64,000 bases of DNA from a virus, in the IMG/VR virus record IMGVR_UViG_3300045988_179616, positions 43,395 to 107,394 of that record; one strand, given 5' to 3'. How positions within the stretch are numbered: position 1 is the stretch's first letter; every line of letters begins with the position of its first letter. Positions 2,366 through 63,793 of the stretch are shown here, piece by piece. Both the position numbers and the translations under genes were made by a program. The notes below the pieces were generated by a model. The model was not told the origin of the DNA. It saw only the letters and a program-made list of their open reading frames with translations, and did not search any database.

Positions 2366-3685
2366 ATGAATCGTCTAAATCTCGACTTCTCACTTTCCAG
2401 TGATGAAGCCCGCGCCGAATACGTCCAAACCTATATCCAAAACTTCGACGCAGAAAAACCTCTCACAAGTTCCGAACTCGAAAAAATCGCCGACTATCTC
2501 CTATGGGGCAAAAATTCCGAAGGCCTCTCCTCAGACAAAAGCGCAAATATCGAACTAAAGTCTACATGGTCATCTCATCCATTAGTCTCTCTCGACGAAT
2601 TACGTGAAAGTCCCGCCTTTAATGAAGACTCAATCCGCCCCATAAGCGACACCCCAACCAAAACTTCGAAACAAAAATTCTCACGCCAACTCGCGCGCAA
2701 AAACGCCCCGCCTCACATACTCGCCCTATTGGAACCACTCTGGCGTGAAATTGACGAAATCGACTTCCAGCTCTCAACCTACGAAGTTCGAACCGGTAAA
2801 AAAGAAAAAGTTCGCGAAGACCTGCGCGCCCAGTTTACTCCTTCCGAACTCCAAAGCCTCGAAGAAAAATCAAAACTCCTAAATCCCTACTCCTACCTAA
2901 AACAAAAACGTCTCCTAATCGAAAAACGACGTGAACAATTCACTCTCCAAGATTTCTACCAGACAAAACTCCAACGCTTTATCCCTCACACCTATAACCC
3001 ACTCGAAACCCCAATCTTCGATGCTGATATCCCCATCTATCCACTCGGCCTAAAAGGACCTTCAAATTTAGCACGGGCTCTCTTCCCCGAAGGAAGATTT
3101 CCAATTCCCTCAGACTTAAAAAGTGAAAAAGACCAGCGCGCCCTCTCAACTCAAATCTGGACCCCTCGTTCCTCTCGCTACTTTGACTTTGAGGATTTGG
3201 CACATCTTCAAGCTTTGGTAAAAATTTGGGATTCCCTAGAAGAAGGACTAGACTCTTTACCTCTCGAAAGTACATTGCGAGCCCTCTTTGAAACTTTTGA
3301 ATGGTATAAATCCCTAGCTGACCTGACCCCCCTCGAAGAAGATATCTTCCAACTAAAAATGGCCCACCAACAAAACCAGCCAATCGTTGAATACATCAAC
3401 AAAAAATACAACAAAACCTATAACTCAAACTATATCTCCACTATTTTCCACCAAAAAGCCCTCTCAAAAATTTGCGCGGCTGCCGCAACCCATCGTGAGC
3501 ACGCCGAAAATTTATTTTTCCCTGAAAATTTCAAACGTTGTAAAGATTGTGGAAGAACCTTACTTCTGGATAGTAAGTATTTTATGAGGAGACAAAGTTC
3601 TCGTGATGGATATTCTTGTCGGTGTAAGAAGTGCGACCGGCTATTACGATATAAAAGAGAAGGGCGTGAAGCCCCCTTGGTATAA
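2366..3685 (+). CDS. Hypothetical protein (439 aa) with C-terminal Cx2C-x22-CxCx2C zinc ribbon; function unknown
   Basis: Long ORF with RBS. C-terminal sequence is CKDCGRTLLLDSKYFMRRQSSRDGYSCRCKKC. The coding strand is strongly C-rich and G-poor, unlike neighbouring genes. Confidence 0.7.
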   Translation: MNRLNLDFSLSSDEARAEYVQTYIQNFDAEKPLTSSELEKIADYLLWGKNSEGLSSDKSANIELKSTWSSHPLVSLDELRESPAFNEDSIRPISDTPTKTSKQKFSRQLARKNAPPHILALLEPLWREIDEIDFQLSTYEVRTGKKEKVREDLRAQFTPSELQSLEEKSKLLNPYSYLKQKRLLIEKRREQFTLQDFYQTKLQRFIPHTYNPLETPIFDADIPIYPLGLKGPSNLARALFPEGRFPIPSDLKSEKDQRALSTQIWTPRSSRYFDFEDLAHLQALVKIWDSLEEGLDSLPLESTLRALFETFEWYKSLADLTPLEEDIFQLKMAHQQNQPIVEYINKKYNKTYNSNYISTIFHQKALSKICAAAATHREHAENLFFPENFKRCKDCGRTLLLDSKYFMRRQSSRDGYSCRCKKCDRLLRYKREGREAPLV

Positions 3686-3696
3686 AGGAGAAAACT

Positions 3697-3966
3697 ATGG
3701 ATAAAAATAATCGTACAAAAATTTTTATGGAGCTATTAGTAGGACTAGAGGCTATTGAGTTTGTGGGCCTTTGTAAGTTTTTGGGCGTCCGACTCGTTGA
3801 GAAAAAGAGCGAGCCGGCGCCAACTACGCCCAATGATGAAGCTCCTAAAAAATCCGAAACCCGTGATTTTTCAGACTTATTTAGTGATTTGCTCCAAAAA
3901 TTTTCAAACCTATCTCGGCCTCGTCAGCGCGAACTCATAAAAATCCTCAAAAAAGTCAACAAATAA
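3697..3966 (+). CDS. Hypothetical protein (89 aa)
   Basis: ORF with an AAAGGAG RBS. Basic C-terminus. Confidence 0.55.
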   Translation: MDKNNRTKIFMELLVGLEAIEFVGLCKFLGVRLVEKKSEPAPTTPNDEAPKKSETRDFSDLFSDLLQKFSNLSRPRQRELIKILKKVNK

Positions 3967-3984
3967 AAAGGAGGATTAGTAGTA

Positions 3985-4974
3985 ATGCCACTACAACCGA
4001 ATATACCAAAACAAAAACGCTCATTTCTTACAAAAGAATGCCCGCGTTGTAAGCAACAACAACTAGAAGAAGATTTCACAAAAACTCACTCGATTTTCTA
4101 CCCAGATGGAGTACTTCCCATCTGTAATGATTGTATTACTCATTACCTCAAACAGAATGAGTTTAGTTGGCGCGCAGTTGATAAAGTCTGTCAATGGGCC
4201 GATATCCCCTTCATTGTGAAAGAGTTTGAGAGGCTAAGAGATTTGAATTCTGATGATACTGTTTGGGGCGTTTATGCAAAAGTCTTTGCAACAGAAGAAT
4301 ATAAGAATTTAGGATGGGACAGTTATAACTCCCAATATCTCGAACTAAAAAAAGTTGGACTTATTGAGGATGAGATTCCATTAGTAAAGGAAAAGCATTT
4401 TGAGGAATTGCGCCGACGCTGGGGAGGCAACTATGATGATGATGAACTCTATTACTTAGAGGACCTCTATAAAGGCTTGCTTCTTTCTCAAAACGTATCT
4501 GGCGCGCTAGCGATTGACCAAGCTCAAAAGCTCTGTAAGCTTTCGTTAGAAATAGATAAACGAATCCGTGCCGGCGACAAAGACGTCGATAAATTCCTCT
4601 CATCTTATGATAAGATTGTGAAGACAGCAGATTTTACTCCTAAGTCAGTCAAAAACGCAACCGACTTTGATAACATTGGAGAACTGATGCTCTGGCTCGA
4701 AAAGCGCGGGCACCAAAACAAATTCTATGATAATACTACTAGAGATGTTATCGATGAGACTTTGAAAAATATTGAAGCTTGGAATCAGCGTTTATATATA
4801 AATGAAGGTGGTCTTGGAGATGAGGTGACCGCGCGACTTCAGGCTCTTCAAAATGTCGCTCAAACAGATAACTTTTATGACCTCCAAGCAGACAACTTTG
4901 ATGCGGATGTCTATGAGGCCGAAGCTTTCAAAGAGGATGAAAGTGAGGAGTTCGATGCGGGAGGAACCCTCTAA
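3985..4974 (+). CDS. Zn-ribbon protein (329 aa); possible small terminase or packaging accessory subunit (positional inference only)
   Basis: N-terminal sequence is CPRCKQQQLEEDFTKTHSIFYPDGVLPICNDC. Its stop overlaps the TerL start (TAATG). Acidic C-terminus. Confidence 0.6.
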   Translation: MPLQPNIPKQKRSFLTKECPRCKQQQLEEDFTKTHSIFYPDGVLPICNDCITHYLKQNEFSWRAVDKVCQWADIPFIVKEFERLRDLNSDDTVWGVYAKVFATEEYKNLGWDSYNSQYLELKKVGLIEDEIPLVKEKHFEELRRRWGGNYDDDELYYLEDLYKGLLLSQNVSGALAIDQAQKLCKLSLEIDKRIRAGDKDVDKFLSSYDKIVKTADFTPKSVKNATDFDNIGELMLWLEKRGHQNKFYDNTTRDVIDETLKNIEAWNQRLYINEGGLGDEVTARLQALQNVAQTDNFYDLQADNFDADVYEAEAFKEDESEEFDAGGTL

Positions 4975-6761
4975 TGGCTGTAATTACTTTGCGCGACCCT
5001 ACTTCAATTTATAACTCCCAAAATCGTCTTTTTAGAGAAGGGATCGAATTAGAAAAAGGAGTTGTTATAACTGAGGAATTCTTAGAGCGAAATGAGAAGT
5101 TTCTGGAAGAGGAGCTTCAACTTTATACAGTTTATCCTGACATCTATTTAGATACAATAAAACCCATTGACTCCCAATTTGATTTGTTTCCTTATCAACG
5201 CTTATTTCTGCGCGCGCTTATGCGTTATAATCAAATCTATATTACCGCAACTCGCGCAGCTTCAAAGTCATTTCTAAGCGTCCTTGGGCTCTATCTTCAG
5301 TGTGTCTTTATCCCTAATCATAGATGCTCGATTGTCGCCCCTGTCAAGACGCAAGGCGTAAAGATTATGAGACAGAAAGTAGAAGAAATCATAAAGATTT
5401 GGCCTTTATTAGAGAAAGAGCTTGAAGTTTTTATGGGGAAGCCTCATATGAACTTTTCAAAAGATGTGGCCGAGCTTTACTTCAAGAATGGCTCCAAATT
5501 TACTTGCGAGGGCGCTACGGACTCATCACGTGGTCTCAGACTTCACTCAACATTCCTCGACGAGGTACGTGATGCTGATGGAGATATTATTTCCGAAGTT
5601 ATACTTCCTCAACTAAATGTTTCTCGGCGTGACGCAAATGGTCTAGTAAATCCTTATGAAGTTTGTAACCAGCAAGTTATTGCTGGAACTTCAGCAGGTA
5701 TGAAGTCTTCTTATGCTTATTCACTTCTAATAGAAACAATGATACAAGCAATAATTGACCCAAAAAGAGCCTTTGTTATGGGTCTAGACTATCGTATTCC
5801 TGCCCAGCATGGCTTGGTTGATAAAAAACACGTTGAGAAATTGAGGATGTCTTCAGCCTATAACGAAATGACATTCGCATCAGAGTTCATGGGGACTTGG
5901 AGTGGAGGAAGCGAGGAATCTTGGTTTGATTTTGAGAAACTTTCTAAATATCGAACAAAGAAAAATCCAGAATTTACTCAGAAATTTAGAAACCAGCAGA
6001 ATTGTTTCTACTTTATCAGTGTAGACGTAGGACGCCTACAAGACTCAACAATTGCTTGTATCTTTCGAGAAAACATCAAGAATGACAAATACTACTCAAC
6101 TCTCGTCAATATTGAGGTTCTTGGAAGACAAGCAGAAACAAAAACCTTTACACAACAAGCAATTGATTTGAAGCTTCTGATTGAGAGATATAATCCTCGA
6201 GAAGTTTTGATCGACTGCAATGGTTTAGGTTTAGGCCTCGCAGATGAGATGATAAAAACTCATACAGATGCGCGAGGTCGTGAGCTTCCTGCATACGGCT
6301 TTTTCAATAACGATGATTACAAAAAAATCCAACCTAAAGACTCTATTCCTATTTTATATTCTATGAAAGCAAATGGCCCCCTAAAATCAAAAATCAATGG
6401 TAATGCCTATTCTCGTTTGAGTGGCGGATTGGTTCGGTTCTTGATTAGTGAGCAGGAGGCGCGCAATGCTCTTCTTGGAACGAAAGTTGGTCAAAAAATG
6501 ACAATGCGCGAGCGAGTCCAACGGCTACTTCCTCATGAGCAGACAACAAAACTTTTTGAAGAAATGGGTAATCTTCGCGTCAAAAATGTAGGTATAGATA
6601 TAGTCCTTGAAGCGATAAATAAACGGTTCCATGATGACCGCTATTATGCTTTTGCTTATGGGTTATGGCGTATCAAAGAGATTGAAGAGGCTCAAATGAA
6701 AAAACAACGAAGACGGGGCGCTGGAAAACGCAACCTAATATTCTTTACGGGAGGGGCATAA
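4974..6761 (+). CDS. terL: Terminase large subunit
   Basis: 595 aa. Walker-A-like ITATRAASKSF, Walker-B-like STFLDEVRD, and C-terminal nuclease-like acidic motifs (FISVDVGR, LIDCNGLG). Canonical position upstream of the portal gene. Confidence 0.85.
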   Translation: MAVITLRDPTSIYNSQNRLFREGIELEKGVVITEEFLERNEKFLEEELQLYTVYPDIYLDTIKPIDSQFDLFPYQRLFLRALMRYNQIYITATRAASKSFLSVLGLYLQCVFIPNHRCSIVAPVKTQGVKIMRQKVEEIIKIWPLLEKELEVFMGKPHMNFSKDVAELYFKNGSKFTCEGATDSSRGLRLHSTFLDEVRDADGDIISEVILPQLNVSRRDANGLVNPYEVCNQQVIAGTSAGMKSSYAYSLLIETMIQAIIDPKRAFVMGLDYRIPAQHGLVDKKHVEKLRMSSAYNEMTFASEFMGTWSGGSEESWFDFEKLSKYRTKKNPEFTQKFRNQQNCFYFISVDVGRLQDSTIACIFRENIKNDKYYSTLVNIEVLGRQAETKTFTQQAIDLKLLIERYNPREVLIDCNGLGLGLADEMIKTHTDARGRELPAYGFFNNDDYKKIQPKDSIPILYSMKANGPLKSKINGNAYSRLSGGLVRFLISEQEARNALLGTKVGQKMTMRERVQRLLPHEQTTKLFEEMGNLRVKNVGIDIVLEAINKRFHDDRYYAFAYGLWRIKEIEEAQMKKQRRRGAGKRNLIFFTGGA

Positions 6762-6762
6762 T

Positions 6763-8280
6763 TTGGAACAACAAAATACCGAGTTCAAAAGAAATTTTGA
6801 CCTTGCCTCCTTTAAAAGAGCATCAAGCGGAATGGTTTCCAAAAATAATGAGGTTTATGGAGACTACGACTATCTCTCTTGGCGCTCTAGGTCCCGCACT
6901 CTAAAAGATTACAAACCTGAAGAAATTGATAATATCATTAATTCGGGTTCTTTATCAGAACAAAGAGAAGTTTCAAGGAATTATTTCCTAAAAGATGGCT
7001 TATATCGTGCTATCATCCTCTATTATGCTAATCTTCTAAAGTGCGCGAACCTTTTGATTCCAAAAGTAAGTTTTGGGAAAAAACTTTCTGACAAGACCAC
7101 TCAGAAAAGATACTATAAAGCTTTAGATTATTTAGATGAAATAAATCCCCCAATTTTATATAATAAAATCGTGACACGAGCCCTAACCGATGGCGCATAC
7201 TTTGGACTAATTTCATCTTTGGATAAGGAATCTTTTGTCTTGATTGACCTACCTGCCTCTTACTGCCAGTCTAGATTTAGAGACATTTATGGTAGAGATA
7301 TTATTGAATTCAATGTCAATTATTTTGACCATTTTACCGATGAAGATACTCGAAATCAAGTTCTAGAGATTTATCCCAAAGAAGTTATAAGTTTTTATCG
7401 TCGATATCAAAAAGGTAAAACTAAAACTTCTTGGATAAAATTATCTACTGATAGTACTCTTTACTTTAGTATTCTTGAAGAGGGGAATCCGACTTTTTTG
7501 AATGTCATTCCTGCTACAATTCAATATGATGAAGCAGTAGATACTGAAAGAGAAAGAGACTTGGAAGAAATCCGTAAGATTCTCATTCAGAAAATACCTC
7601 ACTTGCAGGATGGGTCGCTTCTTTTTGAACCAGATGAGGCTCTCGAAATGCACACTGGCGCGGTGGGCATGATGAAAGGAAATAAAAATCTTTCTGTTTT
7701 AACTACTTACGCTGATGTAGATAGTATTGTCTCAAAAACTTCATCTGATGCTGTTTCAAACAATCTAGAGAAGATGCTTCAAAATGTTTATGCTGAAGCT
7801 GGCGTCAGTGGTCAACTCTTTGCACCAACTGGTTCTCAAGCATTATCTACTTCTATCCTAAATGATATAAGCTTTATGATGCCAATTACTAATAAAATTT
7901 CAAAATTTATTAGTGAACTTCTAACCCAACTTTTTGGAAATTCTAATATAAAATTTACTTATAAAATTCTACCGGTTTCTATTTATAACCAAAGTGATTA
8001 TTTAACCGATGCTTTTAAATTAGCTCAAAGTGGATATAGTTTCTTCTTACCGGGCGCCGTTATGGACTTAAATCAACGAGAACTCCTAAGCATGAAAGAA
8101 CTTGAAAATGAAGTTGAAAAACTTCAAGAAAAGTTAGTGCCTCTAAATTCAGCTTATACTCAAAGTGGAACTTCTGGAGACCCTGGACGCCCAGAAATGA
8201 AAACAGAAGAAAAAGCACAAACTACTATTGAACAAGAAGCATCAACAGACAAACAAGGAGGCTTGAATATAGATGAATAA
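6763..8280 (+). CDS. Portal protein (putative; TTG start)
   Basis: 505 aa, immediately downstream of terL. GGGAGGGG RBS before the TTG at 6763. The call rests on size and position. Confidence 0.7.
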   Translation: MEQQNTEFKRNFDLASFKRASSGMVSKNNEVYGDYDYLSWRSRSRTLKDYKPEEIDNIINSGSLSEQREVSRNYFLKDGLYRAIILYYANLLKCANLLIPKVSFGKKLSDKTTQKRYYKALDYLDEINPPILYNKIVTRALTDGAYFGLISSLDKESFVLIDLPASYCQSRFRDIYGRDIIEFNVNYFDHFTDEDTRNQVLEIYPKEVISFYRRYQKGKTKTSWIKLSTDSTLYFSILEEGNPTFLNVIPATIQYDEAVDTERERDLEEIRKILIQKIPHLQDGSLLFEPDEALEMHTGAVGMMKGNKNLSVLTTYADVDSIVSKTSSDAVSNNLEKMLQNVYAEAGVSGQLFAPTGSQALSTSILNDISFMMPITNKISKFISELLTQLFGNSNIKFTYKILPVSIYNQSDYLTDAFKLAQSGYSFFLPGAVMDLNQRELLSMKELENEVEKLQEKLVPLNSAYTQSGTSGDPGRPEMKTEEKAQTTIEQEASTDKQGGLNIDE

Positions 8281-9628
8281 ATTTGAGTTTCCGGTCGCTG
8301 TTTATGGCAACATAGAAAAATATAATGATGTATTATCAAAGGCGCGGTGCCGAATTTTCTATAAATATGGTAATAGAAACGGTACTTATATAACGGATGA
8401 GTTTGCAGAAAAACTTCTACAAACTCTTCCTTACGCGCCGGTCAAAGGCATCTATGAATATGATGACTACACCGACCATGGAAGTCGAAGAAGCGAGGGA
8501 AGAATTTATGGAATTGTTCCCGAAAATCCTAATGTCAGCTGGGAGCCTCATCTTGATGAAGACGGAGTAGAAAGAACCTACGCTTGCGCAGATGTTCTAA
8601 TTTTTACTGCGCTTTATGCTGAAGCTGGAGACATCGTAGGGAAATCTCAATCAATGGAACTTTATGAGCCATCTTTGAAATATCATCAGGCAATTTATGA
8701 TGGACAAAAGTTCATTGTGTTTGATGAAGGATGCTTTTTAGGTCTCCAAGTTTTAGGAGATGATGTCGAGCCTTGCTTTGAGGGCGCGAGCTTCTTCGAA
8801 CTTCAAACTAGTATTGATAAAGTTATAAAGAAGATTCAAGAGATTGAAGCTATTTATACTAAAAATGGAGGAACAGAGACTATGGAAATAAATTTCAAAC
8901 TTTCCGATGGCCAAAAGCATGATGCTCTTTGGTCTCTCTTGAACACCGAGTATAATGAGGAAGGAAACTGGACAGTTAGCTATGCTATTTGTGAAGTTTT
9001 TGATGACTATGCTCTAGCCTATAATTATGAGAGCGGTAAGTATGAGCGAGTTTATTATACGAAGAATGATGAGACTGATAGTGTTGAGCTAGGCGAACGT
9101 ATCCAAGTTTATATTATTGATGTAACCGAAAATGAAAAGCAGACTGTTGATACTTTGCGTCAATTGAATGGCGGTACTTATGAACTTGTAAATGAGGATT
9201 TGACAAATGCTGAAACTCTAAAAGAAGAAAATTCTAATTTTAGTTCCAAAATTGAAGAACTAAATGGTGAGATTTCTACTTTACAAGCAGAGAAGGCTGG
9301 TATTGAGGCTCAATATACTGAGGCTCAGGCCCAGGTCCAGACACTAACAGAAGAAAACAGTTCTCTAAATGAGTATAAAGCTCAGATTGAAAAAGAGCAG
9401 AAAGATGCTGTATTCGCTGAGTATGAAGGACATCTAAGTGAAGAAATTCTAAATACTTATCGCGAGAATAGCGCTAACTATTCTGTATCTGATTTGGATA
9501 AAGAGCTAGCTTATGAGTTGAAGAAGACTGGTTTTTCTGCTTTTTCTAAAAACGACCGTCAAGGTCTAATTCCTAAGGACGTGCCTCTACAAGGTCTAGA
9601 TGCCGTCTTAGCTAAATATGTTAAGTAA
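8273..9628 (+). CDS. Prohead scaffolding-like protein (451 aa, coiled-coil C-terminal half)
   Basis: Sits between portal and capsid genes. The C-terminal 150 aa is heptad-rich (LKEENSNFSSKIEELNGEISTLQAEKAGIEAQYTEAQAQVQTL). Whether the N-terminal domain is a protease cannot be judged. Confidence 0.5.
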   Translation: MNKFEFPVAVYGNIEKYNDVLSKARCRIFYKYGNRNGTYITDEFAEKLLQTLPYAPVKGIYEYDDYTDHGSRRSEGRIYGIVPENPNVSWEPHLDEDGVERTYACADVLIFTALYAEAGDIVGKSQSMELYEPSLKYHQAIYDGQKFIVFDEGCFLGLQVLGDDVEPCFEGASFFELQTSIDKVIKKIQEIEAIYTKNGGTETMEINFKLSDGQKHDALWSLLNTEYNEEGNWTVSYAICEVFDDYALAYNYESGKYERVYYTKNDETDSVELGERIQVYIIDVTENEKQTVDTLRQLNGGTYELVNEDLTNAETLKEENSNFSSKIEELNGEISTLQAEKAGIEAQYTEAQAQVQTLTEENSSLNEYKAQIEKEQKDAVFAEYEGHLSEEILNTYRENSANYSVSDLDKELAYELKKTGFSAFSKNDRQGLIPKDVPLQGLDAVLAKYVK

Positions 9629-9642
9629 TTGGAGGAAATAAA

Positions 9643-10197
9643 ATGGCTGCAAAAAGACTAGTAATTAGTGGCTATGGTCAAGTTGAGCTAAATAATGTTG
9701 CCTTCCGTCGTGATGGTCGTATTGAGGCTCAGTGCGCTCCTAATGCCACCGATTTCGCAGATATTCCTGTTGAGAATGGTATGCTTTTGGCTGTTGATGA
9801 TACTAATCATTGTGTAAAGCTACCTAAAGATGATTCTCTACCCATCGCTCTAGTTTATTCTACTGAGCATATGTATGATGAGCGGACTCCTGGTCTAAAG
9901 AACTTCAAGCTAAATGGTTCTGATGACTTCTTCCCCCGTTTAGGCTACCTATCTGTTGGCGACAAGTATCGTACCAATTGCATTTGCTATGATAGTACCG
10001 AATTTGCCACTGAGGAAGCTCTAATTACCGCTCTAAAGGCTTGTGCTACCACGCCTGTATATGGTATGGCTGATGCTTCTGGTGCTACTAAGCTATCTGC
10101 TACTGCAGGTACTTTTGGCCCCAAGCTAAAAGTTGTTGCTTTTGACACTATGCCTGATGGCCAAAAGGGCGTCAAGCTACAAGTGCTAGCTGACTAA
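9643..10197 (+). CDS. Capsid-associated protein (184 aa; decoration or auxiliary head protein candidate)
   Basis: Immediately upstream of the capsid gene. Shares the CTA-Leu-rich codon class of highly expressed late genes. Confidence 0.4.
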   Translation: MAAKRLVISGYGQVELNNVAFRRDGRIEAQCAPNATDFADIPVENGMLLAVDDTNHCVKLPKDDSLPIALVYSTEHMYDERTPGLKNFKLNGSDDFFPRLGYLSVGDKYRTNCICYDSTEFATEEALITALKACATTPVYGMADASGATKLSATAGTFGPKLKVVAFDTMPDGQKGVKLQVLAD

Positions 10198-10217
10198 TAA
10201 AAGGAGGGTAAATTATA

Positions 10218-11270
10218 ATGACTATTAAAGAGCTACAAGAAATTGCCCTTCATTGCGCTAAGGGTACTGTTCCTGCCACCTATGCTAATCAGAATGTAGA
10301 TATGGATTCTGCTTTCCTAGATGGTCTAAAGGAGCTAGCTGGTTCCGTAAACCAGTTTATGAAGAATCGTTATGATATTTATGATATCGTAATTAAGACT
10401 GCCGATGAGGTTATGCCTAAGAAGGTAATTGATGCTATCGGTATGTTCGCTGAGGTTCAGATTGTTCCTCAAAGTCAGAAGGCTATCTTTAAGCGTCGTC
10501 TAGGCAAGATGCGCGCCAAGAAGTTCCTAACTCAGGTTGGTCTATCTGGTGTGTATGAGACCTTCCGTCTAGATAGTGATACCTTTGAGCTAGCTGGCCA
10601 TGCTGTCGGTGGAGGTGCCACTATCGACTTTGAGCGTATGCTAGATGGTGCCGAGACCATGGCTGAGGTTATGCAGGTTCTAACTGATGGTCTAACTGAT
10701 GCCGTATTCTATGAGGTCCATAAGGCTCTTCGCGCTGCCGTAAATGCTTCTGCTCGTCCCGATGCTAATAAGGTAGTTTCTAACACCTTTGAGACTGATA
10801 AGATGGTAAAGCTAATCAATACTGTTCGTGCTTATGGTAACGGTGTTGTAATTTTTGCCCCTCCCGAGTTTGTAGGTGCTATGGGTGCTGACGCCATTGT
10901 AAATGGTATTGCTAATAATACTAATGGTATTTATCATCCTCAGGATATTGACTCAATTCATAACACTGGGTATATCAATATTTTCCGTGGAGCCCCTGTT
11001 GTTCAGATTCCTCAGTCCTTTATTGATGAAACCAATACTAAAACTTGGATTGACCCTCAGCTAGCTTATGTTCTACCCACCGGTGGAGAGAAGGTAGTAA
11101 AGGTTGTTCTAGAAGGCAATACTCAAATCAATGACTTCAAGAATCGTGATAATTCTCTAGAAGTCTATGCTTATAAAAAGATGGGTTGCGCTATTCTAGC
11201 TCATCATAACTGGGGTATTTATCAGAATACGGGGATTACCCAGACTTTTGAGAATCCTTATAATTTTTAA
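10218..11270 (+). CDS. Major capsid protein (putative)
   Basis: 350 aa with a strong AAGGAGG RBS and the expression-biased codon class. Followed by a strong terminator. Position is canonical. Confidence 0.7.
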   Translation: MTIKELQEIALHCAKGTVPATYANQNVDMDSAFLDGLKELAGSVNQFMKNRYDIYDIVIKTADEVMPKKVIDAIGMFAEVQIVPQSQKAIFKRRLGKMRAKKFLTQVGLSGVYETFRLDSDTFELAGHAVGGGATIDFERMLDGAETMAEVMQVLTDGLTDAVFYEVHKALRAAVNASARPDANKVVSNTFETDKMVKLINTVRAYGNGVVIFAPPEFVGAMGADAIVNGIANNTNGIYHPQDIDSIHNTGYINIFRGAPVVQIPQSFIDETNTKTWIDPQLAYVLPTGGEKVVKVVLEGNTQINDFKNRDNSLEVYAYKKMGCAILAHHNWGIYQNTGITQTFENPYNF

Positions 11271-11321
11271 TAAATAAATAACGTATTTAGAGATACGCTA
11301 ACCAAAGATAATTAAATCTCT

Positions 11322-11358
11322 TCGAGGGAGGGACAAACTCCCTCCCTCGATTTATATA
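11322..11358 (+). terminator. Rho-independent terminator after the capsid gene
   Basis: TCGAGGGAGGG-acaaact-CCCTCCCTCGA (11-bp GC-rich stem) followed by TTTATATAT. Confidence 0.75.
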
Positions 11359-11391
11359 TAAAAATTTTTAGGAGTAAAAGGAGTATTTTAA

Positions 11392-11865: not shown

Positions 11866-11867
11866 TA

Positions 11868-14499: not shown

Positions 14500-14513
14500 G
14501 AGGAAATACGGTA

Positions 14514-15290: not shown

Positions 15291-15303
15291 TTAAATAAAA
15301 CTG

Positions 15304-15340: not shown

Positions 15341-15350
15341 AGGAGGAAAT

Positions 15351-56003: not shown

Positions 56004-56255
56004 TTACTCAGCGTCATCACTGGGGACAAAGGTGGCGCCGGCATCAGTTAGATTTACATAAACTACGGGCTTCTCAGCACCCTCAACCTCAACCTTCTCA
56101 CGCTCAACTAGACCCTTCTTCTGTAGGTCAGTTACATTAGCACCTACGGAACGAGAGGCACGACCAATGGCATTGCAAATCTCATCAATAGAGACATGGC
56201 CTCCACTGGACTTGACATAATCAAATACTTCAGAACTCTTAGCAGTCAGCTTCAT
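56004..56255 (-). CDS. Small winged-helix-like DNA-binding protein candidate (83 aa), own promoter and terminator
   Basis: The pattern VSIDEICNAIGRASRSVGANVTDLQKKGLVER resembles a wHTH recognition helix and wing. Monocistronic unit with a consensus promoter. Confidence 0.4.
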   Translation of the reverse strand: MKLTAKSSEVFDYVKSSGGHVSIDEICNAIGRASRSVGANVTDLQKKGLVEREKVEVEGAEKPVVYVNLTDAGATFVPSDDAE

Positions 56256-56376: not shown

Positions 56377-58719
56377 TTAGAAATTTTGGATTTTTATTAC
56401 CTTTGAGTTTTCCCCTAATTTTAGAGTTTTGACTCCTTGCGTACCACGACTTAGTACAGGAATTTCTTCAACTTTCACTCGAATTTGGGTAGTAGAAGAT
56501 ACAACTAGAATATCACTAGAATCAATAAGCGGTAGAAAGTCGCAAAGATTATCTGCTCTTTGAATCTTTACTCCTTTGGTTGCTCGTCCGGTAATTTTGA
56601 ATTCGTTTATATCAGTCCGCTTTGAATATCCATCTTCACTCACAGAAAGAATTTCTCTTGTTTCTTTGGGAATAACTCGTCCAAAAACAACCTTATCTCC
56701 CTCATTTAGCTTGATGCCTACAACCCCTCGAGCCACTCTACCAATAGGTCTAATATCTTTAGTTTCGATAATAATAAAGTTTCCTTCCTCAGTAAGAATA
56801 CCGACTCTCTCATCTTTCAAAATAAGAATAGAAGCAATTAAATCACCATCATCCAACTTTAGAGCTTGAACACCAGTGTTCCTTCGTAAATTATACTCAG
56901 AAAGCGCGGACTTCTTTAAAATTCCATTCTTTGTAAGAAAAAGAATATTTGAAGACTCTGTGTCTTTAGAAAGAATTGTAGCTGATTTTATTTCATCGTC
57001 TCCATTGATAGGTAGAAGTGAATTTAGATACTGCTTTTCTCCAATATTGAATTCTCCCATCTTCAAATGATAAAAGGTCCCGCGCCGTGTGAAAAAGAGA
57101 ACTTCATCTGTGTTGTTTCCAATTAGAGTATCAACTACAAATTCACCTTTATCTAATTTAAATTTTGACCCTACACCATTTCTTCGTTGAGAATAAAGTG
57201 TAGAAGTTTCGCTAACAAATACAGCTCCCTCATTTGTGAAAGAAAGAGACAGTTGTTTTTGCTCGATTGTTTCTTCATCATTTGAAATATTCAAAATTTT
57301 GGTACGACGTTCATCACCAAATTTTTCAGCAACCTCGCGCAATCCTTTTTCAATTTCTTTTTTGAGGAGAATTTCATCACCTAAAATGGCTTCAATTCTT
57401 TCTTTTTCAGTTTCAAGATTGGATTTTTCAGTTTCTAACTTTGTAATATCTAAATGAGTTAAACGAGAAAGCTTTAAGTCTAGAATAGCCTTTGCTTGAA
57501 TTTCATCAATATTCAGTAGGCGCTGAAGGCCAATTGAGGCGTTTTTAGCATCTGCGCATTTTTTGATGGTTTTTACCACTTCATCAATCATTGAAATAGC
57601 TTTCATCAAGCCCTCAATAATATGAAGTCGTGCAAGAATCTTCCTTCGATCAAATTGAAAGCCATTTATATATACGCTTTTTTCATGGTCAAGATGGGAC
57701 TGAAGAAGTTCCTTCCAGCCGAATACTTTTGGAAATCTTCCATCTTCCAACATTGTCATATTTATAGTATAATGATTTTGAAGCGAAGTATTCTTATAAA
57801 GATACTTTAGAACCTTTTCTGGTGAAGCATTTTTGGTTAGATAAATTTTAAGATTACATTGATTACCTGTTAAGTCATTAAATCTCTCAATTCCAGGGTT
57901 CTCATCACCATTTAAAATGTCTTCTAATTGTTGACAAATAGTATTGGTATAAACACCAAAAGGAATTTCAGATACAACAAAGCACTTATCTTTGTTTATA
58001 TATTCAATTACACTTCTTAATTTACAAGCAGAACCGGTTCCATTCTTTAGAGAATTTTTTACTTCTTCTGAATTTAGAAGAATCGCGCCAGTGGCAAAAT
58101 CGGGTAAAATTAAGATTTCTTCTACTGGTATATCTGGATTCCATAACAACTTAATAAGGACCTCATTAAGTTCTTTAATATTAAACTGAGGAATTGAACT
58201 AGCCATTCCAGTAGCAATGCCCGATGATCCATTTACTAAATTATAAAAACCCTTACTTGGTAAAACTGAAGGAAATTGAAGATTGTCAGCATAGTTATCT
58301 CTCCATTCTTCAATTACTTCTTTTTGAATGTCAGCAAAAAGATAATTACAGGTTTCTGCTAATCTTGTTGAAGTATATCTTTCACTCGCCCAACTACCAG
58401 AACTCATAAGAGTGCCACTATTACCTTTTACTTCAGTGAGAGGATAGCGCATACAAAAACTCTCTCCTGCGCGCATCATTATCCCTACACAAGAAGAATC
58501 ACCATGAATATAGAAATCCTTCATTGCATCACCCATAGGAGCATTAGTTTTCTCATATGGTTTATCATGGGTATATTTATTCCGCCACATTGAGTAAAAG
58601 ATTTGCCGAGCACTTGGCTTTAGCATATCACGAGAATCAACTAGGGCTCGAGATTGTAGGACTGCTCCACTATATTGAATAAATGAATCTTTTATTACGG
58701 GAGTCATCTGTATTTCCAT
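56377..58719 (-). CDS. Type IIA topoisomerase subunit A (GyrA/ParC-like)
   Basis: 780 aa. Active-site tyrosine context WASERYTSTRL (compare AAMRYTEARL). C-terminal beta-pinwheel-like repeats. Confidence 0.85.
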   Translation of the reverse strand: MEIQMTPVIKDSFIQYSGAVLQSRALVDSRDMLKPSARQIFYSMWRNKYTHDKPYEKTNAPMGDAMKDFYIHGDSSCVGIMMRAGESFCMRYPLTEVKGNSGTLMSSGSWASERYTSTRLAETCNYLFADIQKEVIEEWRDNYADNLQFPSVLPSKGFYNLVNGSSGIATGMASSIPQFNIKELNEVLIKLLWNPDIPVEEILILPDFATGAILLNSEEVKNSLKNGTGSACKLRSVIEYINKDKCFVVSEIPFGVYTNTICQQLEDILNGDENPGIERFNDLTGNQCNLKIYLTKNASPEKVLKYLYKNTSLQNHYTINMTMLEDGRFPKVFGWKELLQSHLDHEKSVYINGFQFDRRKILARLHIIEGLMKAISMIDEVVKTIKKCADAKNASIGLQRLLNIDEIQAKAILDLKLSRLTHLDITKLETEKSNLETEKERIEAILGDEILLKKEIEKGLREVAEKFGDERRTKILNISNDEETIEQKQLSLSFTNEGAVFVSETSTLYSQRRNGVGSKFKLDKGEFVVDTLIGNNTDEVLFFTRRGTFYHLKMGEFNIGEKQYLNSLLPINGDDEIKSATILSKDTESSNILFLTKNGILKKSALSEYNLRRNTGVQALKLDDGDLIASILILKDERVGILTEEGNFIIIETKDIRPIGRVARGVVGIKLNEGDKVVFGRVIPKETREILSVSEDGYSKRTDINEFKITGRATKGVKIQRADNLCDFLPLIDSSDILVVSSTTQIRVKVEEIPVLSRGTQGVKTLKLGENSKVIKIQNF

Positions 58720-58798: not shown

Positions 58799-59191
58799 TT
58801 ATTCACGAATAAGTGAAAAATCTACATTTTCAAAAATAAAGTTAGTTCGTGGTTCAACCTCTTTACCCATGAGAGAATAAAGTAAAAAGAAACTTTCTTT
58901 ATCTGGCTTTAGTACATCAAGTCGTTGAAACTCTGGAGTGAACATTGATTCGTGAGCTTCCTGAGCCTCAAGCGCGCCGAGACCCTTCGCGCGATGAACT
59001 TCACCTTTTACTTTTCCTTCAGACTTAGCTTTTTCAAAGTCTTCATCAGTGAAGTAATAGCTTCTCTTCTTTCCTTGCTCAACAATAAAGAGTGGAGACC
59101 GAAGCCAGCAAAGACGTCCTTCTTCAATAAATTGTGGGGCTACTTTTAATAGACAACTCATAATCAAAAGTCCAATATGATAACCATCTGA
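58799..59191 (-). CDS. Type IIA topoisomerase subunit B (GyrB/ParE-like), exon 2
   Basis: Begins SDGYHIGLLIM, which completes the Toprim DxDxDGxHI motif. C-terminal tail domain (RAKGLGA, PxxRxL-like). Confidence 0.8.
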   Translation of the reverse strand, partial: SDGYHIGLLIMSCLLKVAPQFIEEGRLCWLRSPLFIVEQGKKRSYYFTDEDFEKAKSEGKVKGEVHRAKGLGALEAQEAHESMFTPEFQRLDVLKPDKESFFLLYSLMGKEVEPRTNFIFENVDFSLIRE

Positions 59192-59514
59192 CATTTATAC
59201 CCTCAGTTTCCTGATATTTTACACAATTCTTTTTCATCACCTTCTCCATAAAGGTAGATTTTTATGGAACCTAACTCTAAAGAATTGAGGGATTAGACTA
59301 TACCATCTTCAAAATTTTGAAGTCCCTATTATAGTCGTTGAGCGTCCATCCGTTCTGGATGTTTCGTTGCGTTTGATTGCCCAATCCTTTTCGATTTTAC
59401 CTTACCGTTTCCGTTACTAAACGCCATTTATATATCCCTATATAAACTTGGTTGAAAAGGCTCTAAGGGGTTCCCCGCAATTTAAGGGATTTTACGCGGA
59501 CTCAACGTTGGTTA
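59192..59514 (-). ncRNA. Group I self-splicing intron (323 nt, no ORF)
   Basis: The 5' exon ends in U. P1 pairs GCGGAU with the internal guide GUCCGC (59496-59501), with a G-U wobble at the splice site. The terminal nucleotide is G at 59192. P4 is GCGUUU/AAACGC, P6 is CAUCC/GGAUG, P7 is GACUAU (59331-36) / AUAGUC (59296-301), and P8 is the hairpin CUUCAAAAUUUUGAAG (59307-22). Confidence 0.8.
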
Positions 59515-60981
59515 ATCCGCATCGCTACAGATACCTAATTTTCCATAACGAAGTTTTTTTGCATCATATTTCCCAGGAATAATATTCATTGCACTTAAAA
59601 GAAGTTTAACTTCTTCATTCTGAAAAATCTTTTCATCATCATTTGAAAGACAATTTATTATTTTACCTCGAATGGCCATTAATCCTGTATGTTCTACATC
59701 TCTAGCCTGTGCCATTCCATTTAGCGCACTATCTCCTTCACATACCAGGAGGATTGAATCCTGTCCTAAGAACTCCGCATCCTTCAACTTATCACTTGCA
59801 AAAACTTTTTTCCGTTGATTCTTTTCAACTTCTTTACCAGCTTCAAGAACTTGACGGCGCGCTTTTTCAGCTACTTGCTCAGCCTTAGCCTCCTTTGTAA
59901 GAAGTTCCATTACCTTTTCAAATTCATCAGAATGCTTTCGTTCAAACTCCTCTAACATTTGCCCCGTAGCGCGCTGACAAAGCCCCCGAAGTACGGGATT
60001 ATTTACTTTTGTCTTTGTTTGGTCGCTAAAGCTCGGCTGAGGAACTTTACAGCTAACAGCATAGAATAGTCCTTTTCGAAGTATATCAGGAGAAACTTCA
60101 CCTTTGATTTTTTTCTTGAAGTAATTAGTTAGCGCAGTTTTGACTCCTGTTAGACTTGTTCCGCCAGCAGTATTTTCAAGACCATTAGTAAAAACGTGCC
60201 ATTCCTCATTTCTACTACTAGTCCAACACATTACAATTTCAGCCTCAACATCATTTTCTTTCATTATAATATGAAGAGGAGTTTTGTTTAGAGGCTTGTT
60301 AGCACAAGTTTTCATAAAGTCTAAAAGCCCATTTTTAGCTTGATATTGAACTGTTTCTTCCTCTCCCTTTTTGTGGTTATTCAAAATAAAAGTCAAAAAG
60401 GGATAGAGATATGACCAATTCCGGCACATTTCTTTTATGTCGCAAAATTTGAGGTCAATTGGTTCAAGATTATAGACTTCTTGAGATGGGGTAAAATCAA
60501 CAAAAGTTCCTCGATTATTTGAGCTACCAGTTGTAAGTGAAACTTTTTGTCCTTCTTTTAGGACTAATTCAGACTGTTTTCCATCTCTCATTGATACCGC
60601 GCGGAAGGTATCACTCGACAAGGCTGTCCCTTTTGCCCCAATGCCATTGAGCCCTCCTACATTTTGGTAAATTTTATTATTGAATTTTCCTCCACTATGC
60701 GGAAGGGTATAAATTGCTTCAAGTGCATCGACGCCATCTTCTCGCGGACCGAAAGGACATCCCCTTCCATTGTCTAGGACCGTTATTCGGTTTCCATCAT
60801 AAAGGTCAACAACAATACGATTGCAGAATCCCATTGTAGCTTCGTCTATACTATTTGTAATGATTTCACGCACACATTGAAGTACTCCTTGGTTGTCTGC
60901 GCTTCCCATATACATTGCAACCCTAGAGCGAACGGCGTCTTTGAAACTCAAAGTTTCAATAGAGTTAGCATCATAACTCAA
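59515..60981 (-). CDS. Type IIA topoisomerase subunit B (GyrB/ParE-like), exon 1 (TTG start refined)
   Basis: GHKL ATPase motifs (EIITNSIDEA, GRGCPF, GGLNGIGAKG), QTKTKVNNP, and Toprim LLVCEGDSA. Ends ...ICSDAD. AGGAG lies 9 nt before the TTG at 60981. The ORF-track start at 61023 reads through the promoter. Confidence 0.8.
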
Positions 60982-61014
60982 AATTTTCCAACTCCTTTCT
61001 ACATTTATAATAAT

Positions 61015-61054
61015 ATTATACAAAAAAATAGAGGAGAAATCAAATTCTCCTCTA
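61015..61054 (-). promoter_or_regulatory. Composite terminator-promoter cassette B
   Basis: Minus strand reads TAGAGGAGAATTTGATTTCTCCTCTATTTTTTTGTATAAT. -35 TTGATT at 61038-43, -10 at 61015-20, 17-nt spacer. Confidence 0.6.
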
Positions 61055-62005: not shown

Positions 62006-62013
62006 ATTTCCTC

Positions 62014-62745
62014 TCACCCTCCAGCTTTCATATTTAGTTGCTTTTGCGTCCCATACAAGTCGATATAGAATTTTTCTCTCTCACTCTGCTTATCTTTCGG
62101 AACCTCTTCTAAAATTTCAAAATTATAATTCCAAATTCCATTCCGCGCCATATGTGTATGAAGCGTTGAGCTGGCAACTTTTTCCATACCCAGCGCGGTC
62201 TGAATATGGGCTTGCCATCTATCCTTGAAATTGACGGTTCGGCCTATATAAGCTTCACCAGTTGGAATATAAGTAATCTTATAAATTCCTCCAATTTTTT
62301 GACCAACAACTCTTTTTATCATCTCATTTGTAGGGCGCCGAACTATACTCTCCCATATAACCTTAGGAAGAACTTCTTTATGACATAAACGGTCTTTCAT
62401 ACTATCCAGAAGTTTTATATCTTCAATATCGTTTTGTGTAAGTTGGATTTTGTAGAAGTCTTCTTTCTCGTTTAGTTCCCGTTCTCGCCGTATCGCTTCA
62501 TTTATAGCATCGCGCCGACTGCGAAAATCTTCTAACTCTCTCCTCAGATAGGAAAGTTCATTATTATAACTTCTTTGTTTCGCTTGGAATTCTTGTTGAG
62601 CGTTTTCTTCTAAATTTTTGTATTTTTCTTCTAAAGCTTTTCGATATACCTTATCAGTATTGGTTTTTAGCTTTTGAATTTTTCTTCGTTGTTTTAGTAA
62701 AAGGAAAATACATCCTAAAACCAATAAAACTAAAACTACTATCAT
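62014..62745 (-). CDS. GIY-YIG nuclease domain protein with N-terminal transmembrane anchor and coiled coil
   Basis: MIVVLVLLVLGCIFLLLKQRRK (hydrophobic helix plus basic stop-transfer). About 90 aa of charged heptads. GGIYKITYIPTGEAYIGRTVNFKDRWQAH...N...E (GIY-YIG core). Confidence 0.65.
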   Translation of the reverse strand: MIVVLVLLVLGCIFLLLKQRRKIQKLKTNTDKVYRKALEEKYKNLEENAQQEFQAKQRSYNNELSYLRRELEDFRSRRDAINEAIRRERELNEKEDFYKIQLTQNDIEDIKLLDSMKDRLCHKEVLPKVIWESIVRRPTNEMIKRVVGQKIGGIYKITYIPTGEAYIGRTVNFKDRWQAHIQTALGMEKVASSTLHTHMARNGIWNYNFEILEEVPKDKQSEREKFYIDLYGTQKQLNMKAGG

Positions 62746-62749
62746 CTTC

Positions 62750-63793
62750 TTACTCCCAATTAGTAATTTTTGTACGCTTCTTTCTTTGTGGTGTCATCCA
62801 TAAAACTCCATCTCGCGCACGAGTAATCCCAACATAGGATACTCTACACTCTTCGGGACTCCAAAGATTTAATCCAACGCAAGCTACGTAGTCCCATTCT
62901 AAACCTTTCGCGCTATGTACAGTCAAAACCTTTACTGTATTTTCTTCCATTTTTTTATCCAGTTCTTCTTTTTTGAGATCTCCCTGCTTGAAGCTATCAC
63001 AAGGAACCCCGTTATCAACCAGATAATCTTTGATAGTATCGACTTGCGCATTAGTCCGTGCTAATACTGCCCATTTATAATATTTTTTACTAATATTTAT
63101 CATATCTAGGATTAGTTGTTCACTATAAGGCTTCATTGCTACTGTTCCTTTAACCTGGCGTATAGCAACACTGTCATCAGTCATACTACATTTTTGAAGA
63201 GTAGATTTTGCAAAACGAAGAACGTCAGGACAACAGCGATAATTTTCATTCATAGAATAAACTTTTGCCCCAAGTTCATACTGATAACTCTTCAAAAGGT
63301 CCGGACGACTGCCTGCAAAGCCGTATATCGACTGTCGTAAATCAAAGACAATAAAATATTCTTTTGCGTGAAGCATTTCAAAAATAAATTTTAGCTGAAT
63401 TTCATTACTATCTTGCGCTTCGTCACATAAACATATATCAATATTTGGCGTACATTCTGGATGCTTTTGCATTAGATGAAAAAGTCCATCGAATTTTTCG
63501 TCGTTCATATACTTTATGGCTTCTTTTACACCATTTCTGAGTAGAAGGTGCGCGCAGTAAGAGTGGATAGTTCCAATAAATAAGTTATCATTATTATCTA
63601 CTTGAAGACGCTTTTTCATCTCTCCAGATGCCATATTTGTAAATGTAAAAGCCACTACACTTTTTCCATTTTGAATACTTTGACGGACTTTTTCGGTTAG
63701 AACTTTTGTTTTTCCCGAACCGGCACTACTACTCACAAAGATAATTGGCTCTGTTGCTTCTAATATCGTATTCTGTATATTACTTAGTTCCAA
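62750..63793 (-). CDS. Compact SF1 UvrD/PcrA-like helicase (347 aa)
   Basis: Motif I SAGSGKTK, Ia FTFTNMASGEM, II CDEAQD, III QSIYGFAG, V TVHSAKGLEWD, VI YVGITRAR. Too short to contain full 1B/2B accessory domains. Confidence 0.7.
   Translation of the reverse strand: MELSNIQNTILEATEPIIFVSSSAGSGKTKVLTEKVRQSIQNGKSVVAFTFTNMASGEMKKRLQVDNNDNLFIGTIHSYCAHLLLRNGVKEAIKYMNDEKFDGLFHLMQKHPECTPNIDICLCDEAQDSNEIQLKFIFEMLHAKEYFIVFDLRQSIYGFAGSRPDLLKSYQYELGAKVYSMNENYRCCPDVLRFAKSTLQKCSMTDDSVAIRQVKGTVAMKPYSEQLILDMINISKKYYKWAVLARTNAQVDTIKDYLVDNGVPCDSFKQGDLKKEELDKKMEENTVKVLTVHSAKGLEWDYVACVGLNLWSPEECRVSYVGITRARDGVLWMTPQRKKRTKITNWE

Follow-up and report, generated by a model that had tools for sequence, protein, structure and literature searches.

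The 64-kb stretch of IMG/VR virus record IMGVR_UViG_3300045988_179616 analysed here over its full length (hereafter the window) has a G+C content of 35.6% and represents about half of the genome of a large siphophage, whose total size is estimated at ~115 kb. Its genes form two convergent transcription arms. Both arms, between positions 2366 and 63793, carry an over-representation of short runs of at least 5 nucleotides (nt) in which G and C strictly alternate, nearly all of them within coding sequence, and these runs are the subject of this study. The plus-strand arm (2366–36743) encodes a sigma-like protein, the large terminase (4974–6761), the portal, head proteins and very large tail proteins, the tape-measure protein alone comprising 2569 amino acids (aa). 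The minus-strand arm (36780–63793) encodes proteins of replication (a DnaE-type polymerase, primase and DnaB), of recombination and repair (RecJ, a Sak4-like ATPase of the AAA_24 family, a RuvC-like resolvase, a UvrD-like helicase and a GIY-YIG nuclease) and of nucleotide metabolism (ribonucleotide reductase, SHMT, dCMP deaminase and dUTPase), and also codes for GyrA and a split GyrB. No deposited phage has any nucleotide match to the window, no close relative was found among plasmids, and the capsid-like protein of the window has no record in the assembly index. The terminase is 34–39% identical to those of Geobacillus phage E3, SPbeta-like Bacillus phages, Enterococcus phage H1 and the gut phage Phass-1. 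Many relatives of 90–120 kb, with terminase identities from 46% to 98%, are present in IMG/VR and come from human-gut and rumen samples, sample 3300045988 by itself contributing dozens of clade genomes. The host is probably a low-GC Firmicute.

An exact recount of the window gives 35 overlapping occurrences of GCGCGC at 31 distinct loci, together with 17 of CGCGCG. The original prediction, made by eye, had placed GCGCGC at at least 31 loci; all 31 are real, with none invented and none missed, 23 of them at exactly the right position and eight shifted by 1–10 nt (5220 becomes 5210, 43785 becomes 43776, 49847 becomes 49837, 52113 becomes 52103, 58468 becomes 58469, 58973 becomes 58972, 59865 becomes 59857 and 59968 becomes 59969). 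Its estimate that only about 1–2 copies should occur by chance is also sound, the frequencies of G (0.173) and C (0.182) giving an expectation of 2.0 at order 0 and 1.6 at order 1. The 35 occurrences lie far above the five or so below which no enrichment could be claimed, and synonymous-codon shuffles within genes do not reproduce them: 500 shuffles give a mean of 4.6 ± 2.1 and a maximum of 12 (z = 14.7). For GCGC, the same shuffles predict 91.5 copies and 196 are observed (z = 13.4). Comparison with higher-order Markov models supports the claim only in part, in that the hexamer is in excess against orders 0–1 and shows no excess against orders 3 and 4 (24.7 and 41 expected). The hexamer excess is lost at these orders because the signal is already contained within 4–5-mers; GCGCGC is therefore not the primary word, and the signal arises in shorter words.

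Enrichment was accordingly expressed as the ratio of observed to dinucleotide-expected maximal alternating G/C runs of at least 5 nt. The window contains 89 such runs against 13.8 expected, a ratio of 6.5; 54 are 5 nt long, 23 are 6 nt, seven are 7 nt and five are 8 nt. Under a first-order Markov model of the window, isolated CGCG is observed 15 times with 26.6 expected and isolated GCGC 74 times with 47.5 expected, while alternating 5-mers number 54 (11 expected), GCGCGC runs 19 (1.3 expected) and runs of 7–8 nt 12 (0.2 expected). The same gradation is found when 80 loci of the clade, 1.54 Mb in all, are pooled and compared with the dinucleotide expectation. The observed/expected ratio is 0.9 for runs of 2–3 nt, 1.4 (GCGC) and 0.8 (CGCG) for runs of 4 nt, 2.5–2.8 for 5 nt, 4–6 for 6 nt, 10–17 for 7 nt and 20–24 for 8 nt, with no further gain at 9 nt or more. 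The excess climbs about 2.3-fold per extra base and reaches a plateau at 7–8 nt, and the pooled counts fall from 139 runs of 8 nt to 20 of 9 nt, two of 10 nt and two of 11 nt. What is enriched is not the BssHII or HhaI site but a family of tracts of 5–8 bp, graded by length, in which G and C strictly alternate. The original prediction had taken GCGCGC, the BssHII site, as its unit, and this part of it has to be replaced by the length-graded runs. The tetramer GCGC was likewise rejected as the unit, isolated GCGC being enriched only 1.2–1.4-fold and isolated CGCG standing at 0.6–0.8 of expectation.

Several other descriptions of the excess were considered and rejected. Generic G/C clustering, duplex stability and shielding from deamination do not fit non-alternating G/C-only words, which occur at 0.4–1.0 times expectation. 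Other dinucleotide repeats, or slippage at them, do not behave in the same way, AC/GT alternations being depleted and the run lengths of AT, AG and CT lacking a comparable shoulder. A longer hidden motif is not apparent in the flanks, which hold at most 0.2 bits of information save for an avoidance of T after GCGCG. Regularly spaced priming or loading sites are not in keeping with the random spacing of the runs (coefficient of variation 0.92–1.15), nor are tracts paired as hairpins with the number of neighbouring pairs, about six within ~50 nt, where a hand estimate gives ~3.6 by chance within 30 nt.

The runs are unevenly distributed along the window. The sigma-like gene and the packaging/head module (2366–16186, plus strand) contain 35 runs against 5.3 expected (6.6-fold, 2.5 per kb). 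Those of at least 6 nt comprise CGCGCGC (7 nt) at 2692–2698, GCGCGC at 2824–2829 and 3136–3141, GCGCGC in the phase xxG CGC GCx at 4170–4175 and in the phase xGC GCG Cxx at 4502–4507, CGCGCG at 4830–4835, the 8-nt run GCGCGCGC at 5210–5217 in the terminase gene, GCGCGC at 6459–6464, 10511–10516 and 11983–11988 (the last invariant in 13 of 13 close relatives), CGCGCGC (7 nt) at 12246–12252, GCGCGCG (7 nt) at 13510–13516 and GCGCGC at 14099–14104 and 16009–16014. The tape-measure and tail/fibre genes (16186–34123, plus strand), with a G+C content of 30–36%, hold only six runs against 2.2 expected (~2.8-fold, 0.33 per kb); GCGCGC lies at 22245–22250 in the tape-measure gene, with CGCGC next at 22260. 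A further GCGCGC is found at 35613–35618. The G+C content of the tail/fibre region 23962–34123 (plus strand), which encodes proteins of 310, 2078 and 988 aa, is 29–31%, far below that of the rest of the genome, and this is compatible with a more recent exchange of the tail/fibre module than of the remaining genome.

The replication, recombination and nucleotide-metabolism arm (36780–63793, minus strand) contains 44 runs of at least 5 nt, or 1.6 per kb, and the enrichment of its sub-regions ranges from 2.8-fold to 9.9-fold, with peaks in RecJ–primase–DnaB and in gyrA–gyrB. The octamer GCGCGCGC recurs here in the RuvC-like gene (36950–36957), the SHMT gene (40007–40014) and the primase gene (51240–51247), and the 8-nt run CGCGCGCG lies in the RecJ gene (50700–50707), which also has two 7-nt runs (49588–49594 and 49836–49842). 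Another 7-nt run is located in the DnaB gene (52102–52108), and one that reads GCGCGCG on the plus strand occupies 43776–43782. GCGCGC is found at 44643–44648, in the DnaE gene (47587–47592), at 51606–51611, in gyrA (58469–58474), in exon 2 of gyrB (58972–58977), twice in exon 1 of gyrB (59857–59862 and 59969–59974) and in the UvrD-like gene (63550–63555). CGCGCG is found at 52468–52473, at 58988–58993, 10 nt from the run at 58972–58977, and at 60598–60603.

The tracts are written into genes through the choice of synonymous codons and are a feature of the DNA. At third codon positions, C is used over T in 59% of cases when it completes G-C-G-C and in 20–28% when any one flank is changed; the arginine codon CGC makes up 61% of CGY codons after G versus 20% after C or T, and G in the third position is used in 66% of cases before CGC. 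Rare GCG and CGC codons are picked where they complete the motif, as had been proposed, GCG accounting for 70% of GCR codons before C versus 23% otherwise. The motif was also said to occur in all three codon phases, and the phases given for 2693, 4170 and 4502 are right; both the window and its relatives show the preference at synonymous sites at all four positions of GCGC and in all three phases. These preferences recur in 729 kb of coding sequence from relatives. When codons are shuffled gene by gene across the clade, an excess of ~6-fold remains at 7–8 nt and of 3.4-fold at 9 nt, and this control is conservative because the excess itself inflates the usage of GCG and CGC. The original prediction had argued for selection at the level of the DNA rather than of protein or general codon usage, and both the shuffles and the synonymous-site preferences support an action at the DNA level. 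It had further noted that sites with only a pentamer favour GCGCG on the coding strand; the bias is real (37 versus 17) and drops to 1.2–1.5-fold after control for codon usage. Among odd-length runs in general, G-capped and C-capped forms differ by just 1.1–1.5-fold after codon control, and even-length runs are palindromic. This near symmetry of the strands counts against a function at the mRNA level.

The excess is clade-specific relative to the controls sampled. All 78 clade loci examined around terminase and RecJ are enriched, with run ratios of 1.5–8.5 (median 3.9), and accessory regions outside the window give 2.9–6. Comparison with related phages bears out the signal, the excess being absent from four outgroup phages: Phass-1 (run ratio 1.04), Enterocloster PMBT24 (0, with no run observed and 0.9 expected), Geobacillus E3 (1.14) and Enterococcus H1 (0.69). 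Sixty-five gut and rumen Firmicute loci, drawn from an SHMT-based genome scan and including a short Absicoccus (Erysipelotrichaceae) contig at 0.74, have a median ratio of 0.51 and a maximum of 1.8. The few bacterial loci with a high raw GCGC content have the run lengths predicted by their dinucleotide content, and the lone 'bacterial' outlier, L104, is a clade phage that had been binned into a rumen Erysipelotrichaceae metagenome-assembled genome. Two large gut phages of 118 and 154 kb, L222 and L223 (IMGVR_UViG_3300045988_127823 and IMGVR_UViG_3300045988_144712), show a mild but significant run excess of about twofold (24–25 runs observed versus 11–12 expected) and have no homologues of window proteins in the 21 kb examined, and the trait may extend in weaker form past the clade as defined. 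A prior description of such alternating G/C enrichment in phages did not turn up in the literature.

The direction of the deviation is the opposite of that expected from restriction avoidance, as the original prediction had pointed out, and other palindromes in the same genome are indeed depleted: ACGT stands at 0.24 times expectation in the window, GTAC at 0.36, CATG at 0.39 and TTAA at 0.41, and GATC occurs 27 times against 210 expected (0.13-fold; 160 expected from codon shuffles). Among clade members GATC retention ranges from 0 to 1.1-fold, which suggests that they face different host restriction regimes. This range bears on whether the phages simply mirror their host. The k-mer usage of a phage genome is often close to that of its host, and the host lineage might itself share the signature through a common mutational pressure or sequence-specific constraints. 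The binning of L104 weakly suggests the Erysipelotrichaceae as that lineage, binning being partly tetranucleotide-based, and a mild excess, reaching 2.1-fold, is seen in other large gut phages that have a mobile GmrSD-like gene in common with the clade. However, none of the 65 Firmicute control loci exceeds 1.8-fold, the outgroup phages of gut Firmicutes lack the excess, and prokaryotic phyla generally under-represent alternating G/C hexamers (PMC4060949). From the range of GATC retention across the gut and rumen members it also follows that their hosts and restriction regimes differ, and still no member lacks the excess. Mimicry of the host is an unlikely source of the tracts.

Proteins that might read or write the tracts were sought among the open reading frames (ORFs) of the window and of ~48 kb outward in close relatives, together ~112 kb of a 117.5-kb genome; outside the window the scan took in ORFs of at least 90–110 aa, small ORFs and ~5–12 kb of sequence being left out. 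The flanks encode RNase H, an ATP-dependent ligase, a nucleotidase, phosphoesterases, ClpP, PhoH and an AAA_33 kinase. No cytosine methyltransferase, Vsr or extra deaminase is present among the ORFs scanned, and the suggestion that the tracts serve a modifying protein finds no candidate there. This result counts against the view that the tracts are targets of a GCGC cytosine methyltransferase and have been enriched by Vsr-type T:G repair, for which CCWGG in Escherichia coli is the model. Site-specific repair of T:G mismatches is a textbook route to the over-representation of short palindromes (very short patch, VSP, enrichment), the GCGC core is the classical HhaI methyltransferase/restriction site, and the deviation seen here resembles both restriction avoidance and VSP enrichment in acting on a short palindromic word at synonymous sites. 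It differs from restriction avoidance in its reversed sign and in that no single 4- or 6-bp site fits, isolated GCGC and CGCG not being enriched as such. It differs from VSP enrichment in that no methyltransferase/Vsr pair was found among the phage ORFs scanned, the sole methyltransferase being of the EcoRI-family adenine type. Moreover, the excess grows with run length where isolated GCGC barely departs from expectation, the inner positions, which can be methylated, are no better protected than the outer ones, and the deamination products GTGC and GCAC are not specifically depleted (1.10 versus the trinucleotide expectation). We consider this explanation very improbable.

The scan bears equally on a structural role. 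Strict alternation, independence of register and grading by length are the marks of a structural propensity, and a phage that makes its own gyrase might employ Z-DNA-prone or otherwise structure-forming tracts as supercoil sinks or as targets of a structure-specific protein. The original prediction had listed Z-DNA among its possible roles, which now appears highly unlikely. The runs end at 8–9 nt, the gain stopping at 8 nt and falling at 9–11 nt, whereas B–Z transitions need longer tracts at physiological supercoiling; mixed purine–pyrimidine alternations (ACGC, GTGC, CACG and ACAC) are depleted; and no ORF scanned has a match to the Pfam z-alpha domain. The small winged helix–turn–helix protein encoded at 56004–56255, which had been put forward as a possible binder, resembles the MarR/Lrs14 type, lacks the N..Y/PPxW signature of Z-alpha and, as a generic member of its type, has no link to the tracts. 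Base hypermodification was rejected as well: a 300-aa protein is a canonical dUTPase with an N-terminal extension, and no ThyA/ThyX-like enzyme was found in the window. No solved structure is related to the products of ORF383 and ORF199. As a separate observation, the adenine methyltransferase (N6-specific, Pfam E = 7e-100) adjoins a type IV-like nuclease with GmrSD_N and HNH domains in close relatives; the pair lies ~10 kb past the right end of the window, at L190:431–2847 on the minus strand of contig IMGVR_UViG_3300045988_180318. The nuclease gene is 69–78% identical in other, apparently unrelated, large gut phages (L220–L227), and the pair looks like a mobile defence or anti-defence island.

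The phage-encoded gyrase offers another possible user of the tracts, which could be its binding or cleavage sites and could have replaced a GATC lost to restriction avoidance, so that a genome rich in A and T would still offer the enzyme a high density of sites. The phage codes for both GyrA and an intron-split GyrB, and the runs are densest in gyrA–gyrB and the replication genes. In Streptococcus pneumoniae, 79% of gyrase cleavage sites have the core GxxC, which GCGC fits, and GATC is the most cleaved (PMC12630141); in the window GATC is the most avoided word, and across the clade the run excess is negatively correlated with GATC retention (Spearman rho −0.46, p = 2e-5), a correlation that is confounded with G+C content (rho −0.61) and phylogeny. 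Members that keep GATC (0.9–1.1-fold) nevertheless show the excess. Unlike mapped gyrase sites, the tracts have unphased flanks, with no 10–11-bp periodicity of G/C around 2,926 runs (amplitude 0.0004–0.0016, equal to that of control words). GCGC standing alone already makes up a full GxxC core but shows hardly any enrichment, its palindromic GxxC counterpart GGCC is neither over- nor under-represented, and a gyrase origin leaves the influence of run length unaccounted for. Homologues of GyrA are found in 611 phage records, including phages of Enterococcus, Lactococcus and Bacillus, so that gyrase alone is no predictor of the trait. A gyrase-site origin is thus improbable, slightly more so than mimicry of the host.

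Individual sites turn over while the density of runs stays roughly constant. At ~92% identity GCGC is retained at 77% of sites, compared with an average of 70% for all 4-mers and 47–68% for other G/C-only words, and at ~62–66% identity retention is 19% versus an average of 17.5%. Variants at runs among close relatives are ordinary single synonymous substitutions. Across 111 loci longer than 10 kb, the median density is 1.6 runs of at least 5 nt per kb (interquartile range 1.4–2.05), while the expectation spans 13-fold; observed against expected density has a log–log slope of 0.42–0.49, not 1. Polymorphism was assessed in 15 close genomes with both arms pooled. G/C third positions within runs of at least 5 nt are polymorphic in 59% of cases versus 66% at other G/C third positions, and alleles that destroy a run are rarer, singletons making up 47% versus 29% (Mann–Whitney p = 0.018 over 30 polymorphic sites, a single-test value with the ancestral state set by majority rule). 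Derived-allele frequencies at the inner and outer positions of GCGC are 0.098 and 0.102. On the side of gain, A/T third positions at which a transition creates GCGC are polymorphic in 62% of cases versus 36% (odds ratio 2.9, p = 5e-4); such sites are polymorphic 2–3 times as often as the average, as a mutational or gene-conversion bias would give. Changes that create other G/C words are likewise raised (GGCG 0.63, CGGC 0.56), and the effect is not specific to alternation.

These data have to be set against a neutral origin, in which the tracts arise incidentally, and serve no function, from a bias in mutation, repair or gene conversion that is peculiar to the clade and favours G:C in an alternating context. 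The error spectrum of the phage's own replisome, or a preference in the repair of heteroduplexes, would then slowly load long-resident genes with runs. The phage does encode a DnaE-type polymerase, primase, helicase, RecJ, a UvrD-like helicase, ligase and RNase H. The trait follows the phage lineage and not the sampled bacterial DNA, sites turn over and are randomly spaced without positional meaning, and the raised polymorphism of GCGC-creating positions is as this view would have it. The tail/fibre module is as a rule the portion of a phage genome that is swapped most often, and its signal, the weakest in the window, fits slow amelioration. Biased gene conversion would in addition shift frequency spectra just as selection does. 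Pure mutation bias, however, leaves unexplained why run-destroying variants arise normally yet stay at low frequency, and why density is buffered rather than proportional to expectation. Any such bias would have to depend on a context of 5–8 nt of strict G/C alternation, and we know of no polymerase or repair system with this dependence; the gain signal extends to words that do not alternate, and the inner and outer positions of GCGC behave alike. Taken together, the buffering of density and the frequency shift, the latter in a small polymorphism sample, are suggestive of a weak selection-like force with diminishing returns, either selection or biased conversion, rather than of a mutation bias that acts in a purely multiplicative way. 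A purely neutral origin appears rather doubtful, although less so than the other alternatives weighed above.

We favour the reading that the tracts are a selected, dispersed signal at the level of the DNA for an enzyme that tracks along it, and assign this a probability of roughly 0.5. Each tract would be one of many equivalent copies of a signal that carries little information and works in either orientation, and its reader would be an enzyme that scans or tracks along the phage DNA. Any naming of that enzyme is a guess, and we prefer a Chi-like role, in which the tracts would attenuate the host AddAB/RexAB helicase–nuclease. Extension of GCGCG to a palindrome would place the core on both strands and the signal would therefore work from either DNA end, and the overlapping copies within 7–8-nt runs would raise the chance of recognition. 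Chi sites are dense in coding DNA and interchangeable between copies, and would plausibly be of use to a phage whose linear or concatemeric DNA faces a host helicase–nuclease. The tracts resemble them in being short, rich in G and C, dense in coding DNA through codon choice, and interchangeable. They also share the GCG(CG) core of the Chi words of low-GC Bacilli: GCGCGTG in Lactococcus and Streptococcus, AGCGG in Bacillus subtilis and GAAGCGG in Staphylococcus aureus (PMC5959072, Table 3). The original prediction had already raised a Chi-like role, which stands as a possibility and as the first among functional readings; its weak points are that GCGCGTG is avoided and that the signal is strand-symmetric. 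By analogy with the known Chi systems, a specifically Chi-like function is possible but doubtful, and the proposal taken whole, that is, selected interchangeable tracts with attenuation of host AddAB/RexAB as the leading candidate, is a tentative one.

A number of observations weigh against this interpretation. Chi is asymmetric, acts in one orientation and is set by the host enzyme, whereas the tracts are palindromic and strand-symmetric. The lactococcal Chi word is avoided, T following GCGCG in 4–9% of cases and GCGCGTG being present in one copy in total; the tracts share only its GCGCG core and were rejected as lactococcal Chi. A Chi model leaves without explanation why overlapping copies are favoured over separate ones and why the gain stops at 8 nt. 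Phages with their own recombination functions need Chi less, as in the pattern known from lambdoid phages, and this phage encodes such functions (Sak4-like AAA_24, RecJ and RuvC-like). The enrichment of the tail module, 2.8-fold versus ~6.7-fold elsewhere, would be unexpected if the tracts protected the whole molecule. Finally, the frequency shift of run-destroying alleles comes from the small single test described above, and the polymorphism of GCGC-creating sites is of the kind that a biased process would produce.

Several features of the window and its relatives deserve mention apart from the tracts. The region 37519–43686 (minus strand) encodes a full-length SHMT (Pfam E = 3e-138, 60–66% identical to Clostridia enzymes), dCMP deaminase, a dUTPase with a 130-aa N-terminal extension and a class II-like ribonucleotide reductase with a TSCPD domain. 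This folate/pyrimidine gene set is unusual for a phage, and a thymidylate synthase (ThyA/ThyX-like) was not recognized within the window. The gyrB gene is divided on the minus strand into exon 1 (59512–61023) and exon 2 (58799–59194), and the break falls inside the conserved Toprim DxD motif, the first part ending in '...SDAD*' and the reading resuming ~315 nt on with 'SDGYHIG...'. The gap at 59275–59557 (minus strand) is a full-length match to the group I intron model RF00028 (40.9 bits, local E = 4e-9). A scan of the whole window for structured RNA returned no Rfam family at the gathering score, and did not pick up the gyrB intron because its 40.9 bits fall below the 50-bit gathering score. 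In several close relatives (L007, L008–L010, L044, L045, L052, L053 and L058) the terminase match is either split, with only residues 1–419/423 in one piece, or stretched over 250–850 nt more DNA than the 1785-nt gene. This pattern suggests that the terminase gene of some clade members carries putative intron, intein or homing-endonuclease insertions. The sigma-factor-like ORF (2366–3685, plus strand, 439 aa) has the highest G+C content of the window (44%) and a C- and A-rich coding strand, with a GC skew of −0.24 over 2001–4000 where all other genes of the plus-strand arm have positive skew; the gene may have been acquired recently, or its product may simply be of unusual composition. In L104 (contig CACZGA010000005.1), in-frame stops occur at conserved glutamines of SHMT (10001–11116), as in 'VNV*PHSG', and few long ORFs lie downstream, which indicates stop-codon recoding, probably of TAG to glutamine. 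Phass-1, the nearest named phage, is filed in the NCBI 'code 15 clade', and the window phage uses the standard code.

Among known systems, the closest analogue of the tracts is HIP1. This cyanobacterial sequence, GCGATCGC, is an 8-bp palindrome that occurs once per 1131 bp in Synechocystis, mostly within genes, and has been reported as maintained by selection with its function open, the proposals being chromosome structure, recombination/repair and regulation (PMC6604393). Like HIP1, the tracts are short, palindromic, G/C-ended, no longer than 8 bp in the main and mostly genic, at ~1.6 runs per kb, and their excess reaches an order of magnitude or more, 20–24-fold for 8-nt runs and 4–6-fold for 6-nt runs over the dinucleotide expectation. 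Unlike HIP1, which is one fixed octamer, they form a graded 5–8-nt family in both registers; cognate methyltransferases methylate the GATC core of HIP1, whereas this phage clade avoids GATC and has no cognate cytosine methyltransferase among the ORFs scanned; and HIP1 belongs to cellular chromosomes, the tracts to a phage clade. It is conceivable, if still tentative, that the tracts are a palindromic mark, (GC)3–4, peculiar to a virus clade, written in silent codons, held at ~1.6 per kb by selection and read by a phage or host enzyme. Such self-marking might spare the phage DNA from a nuclease or, alternatively, might help an enzyme of replication, recombination or DNA topology to load or to pause.

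If true, a system of the HIP or Chi kind would for the first time be particular to a virus clade and not inherited from a host genome. Phages usually purge short palindromes under restriction pressure, and this lineage does the reverse. A sequence-reading activity that nobody has described would be implied, whether anti-nuclease, topological or replicative, or else a new repair or gene-conversion bias. Should the host share the signature, the tracts would instead represent an unusual genome signature and a clue for host prediction. The run-length ratio is in addition a practical marker for spotting uncultured members of the clade in metagenomes.

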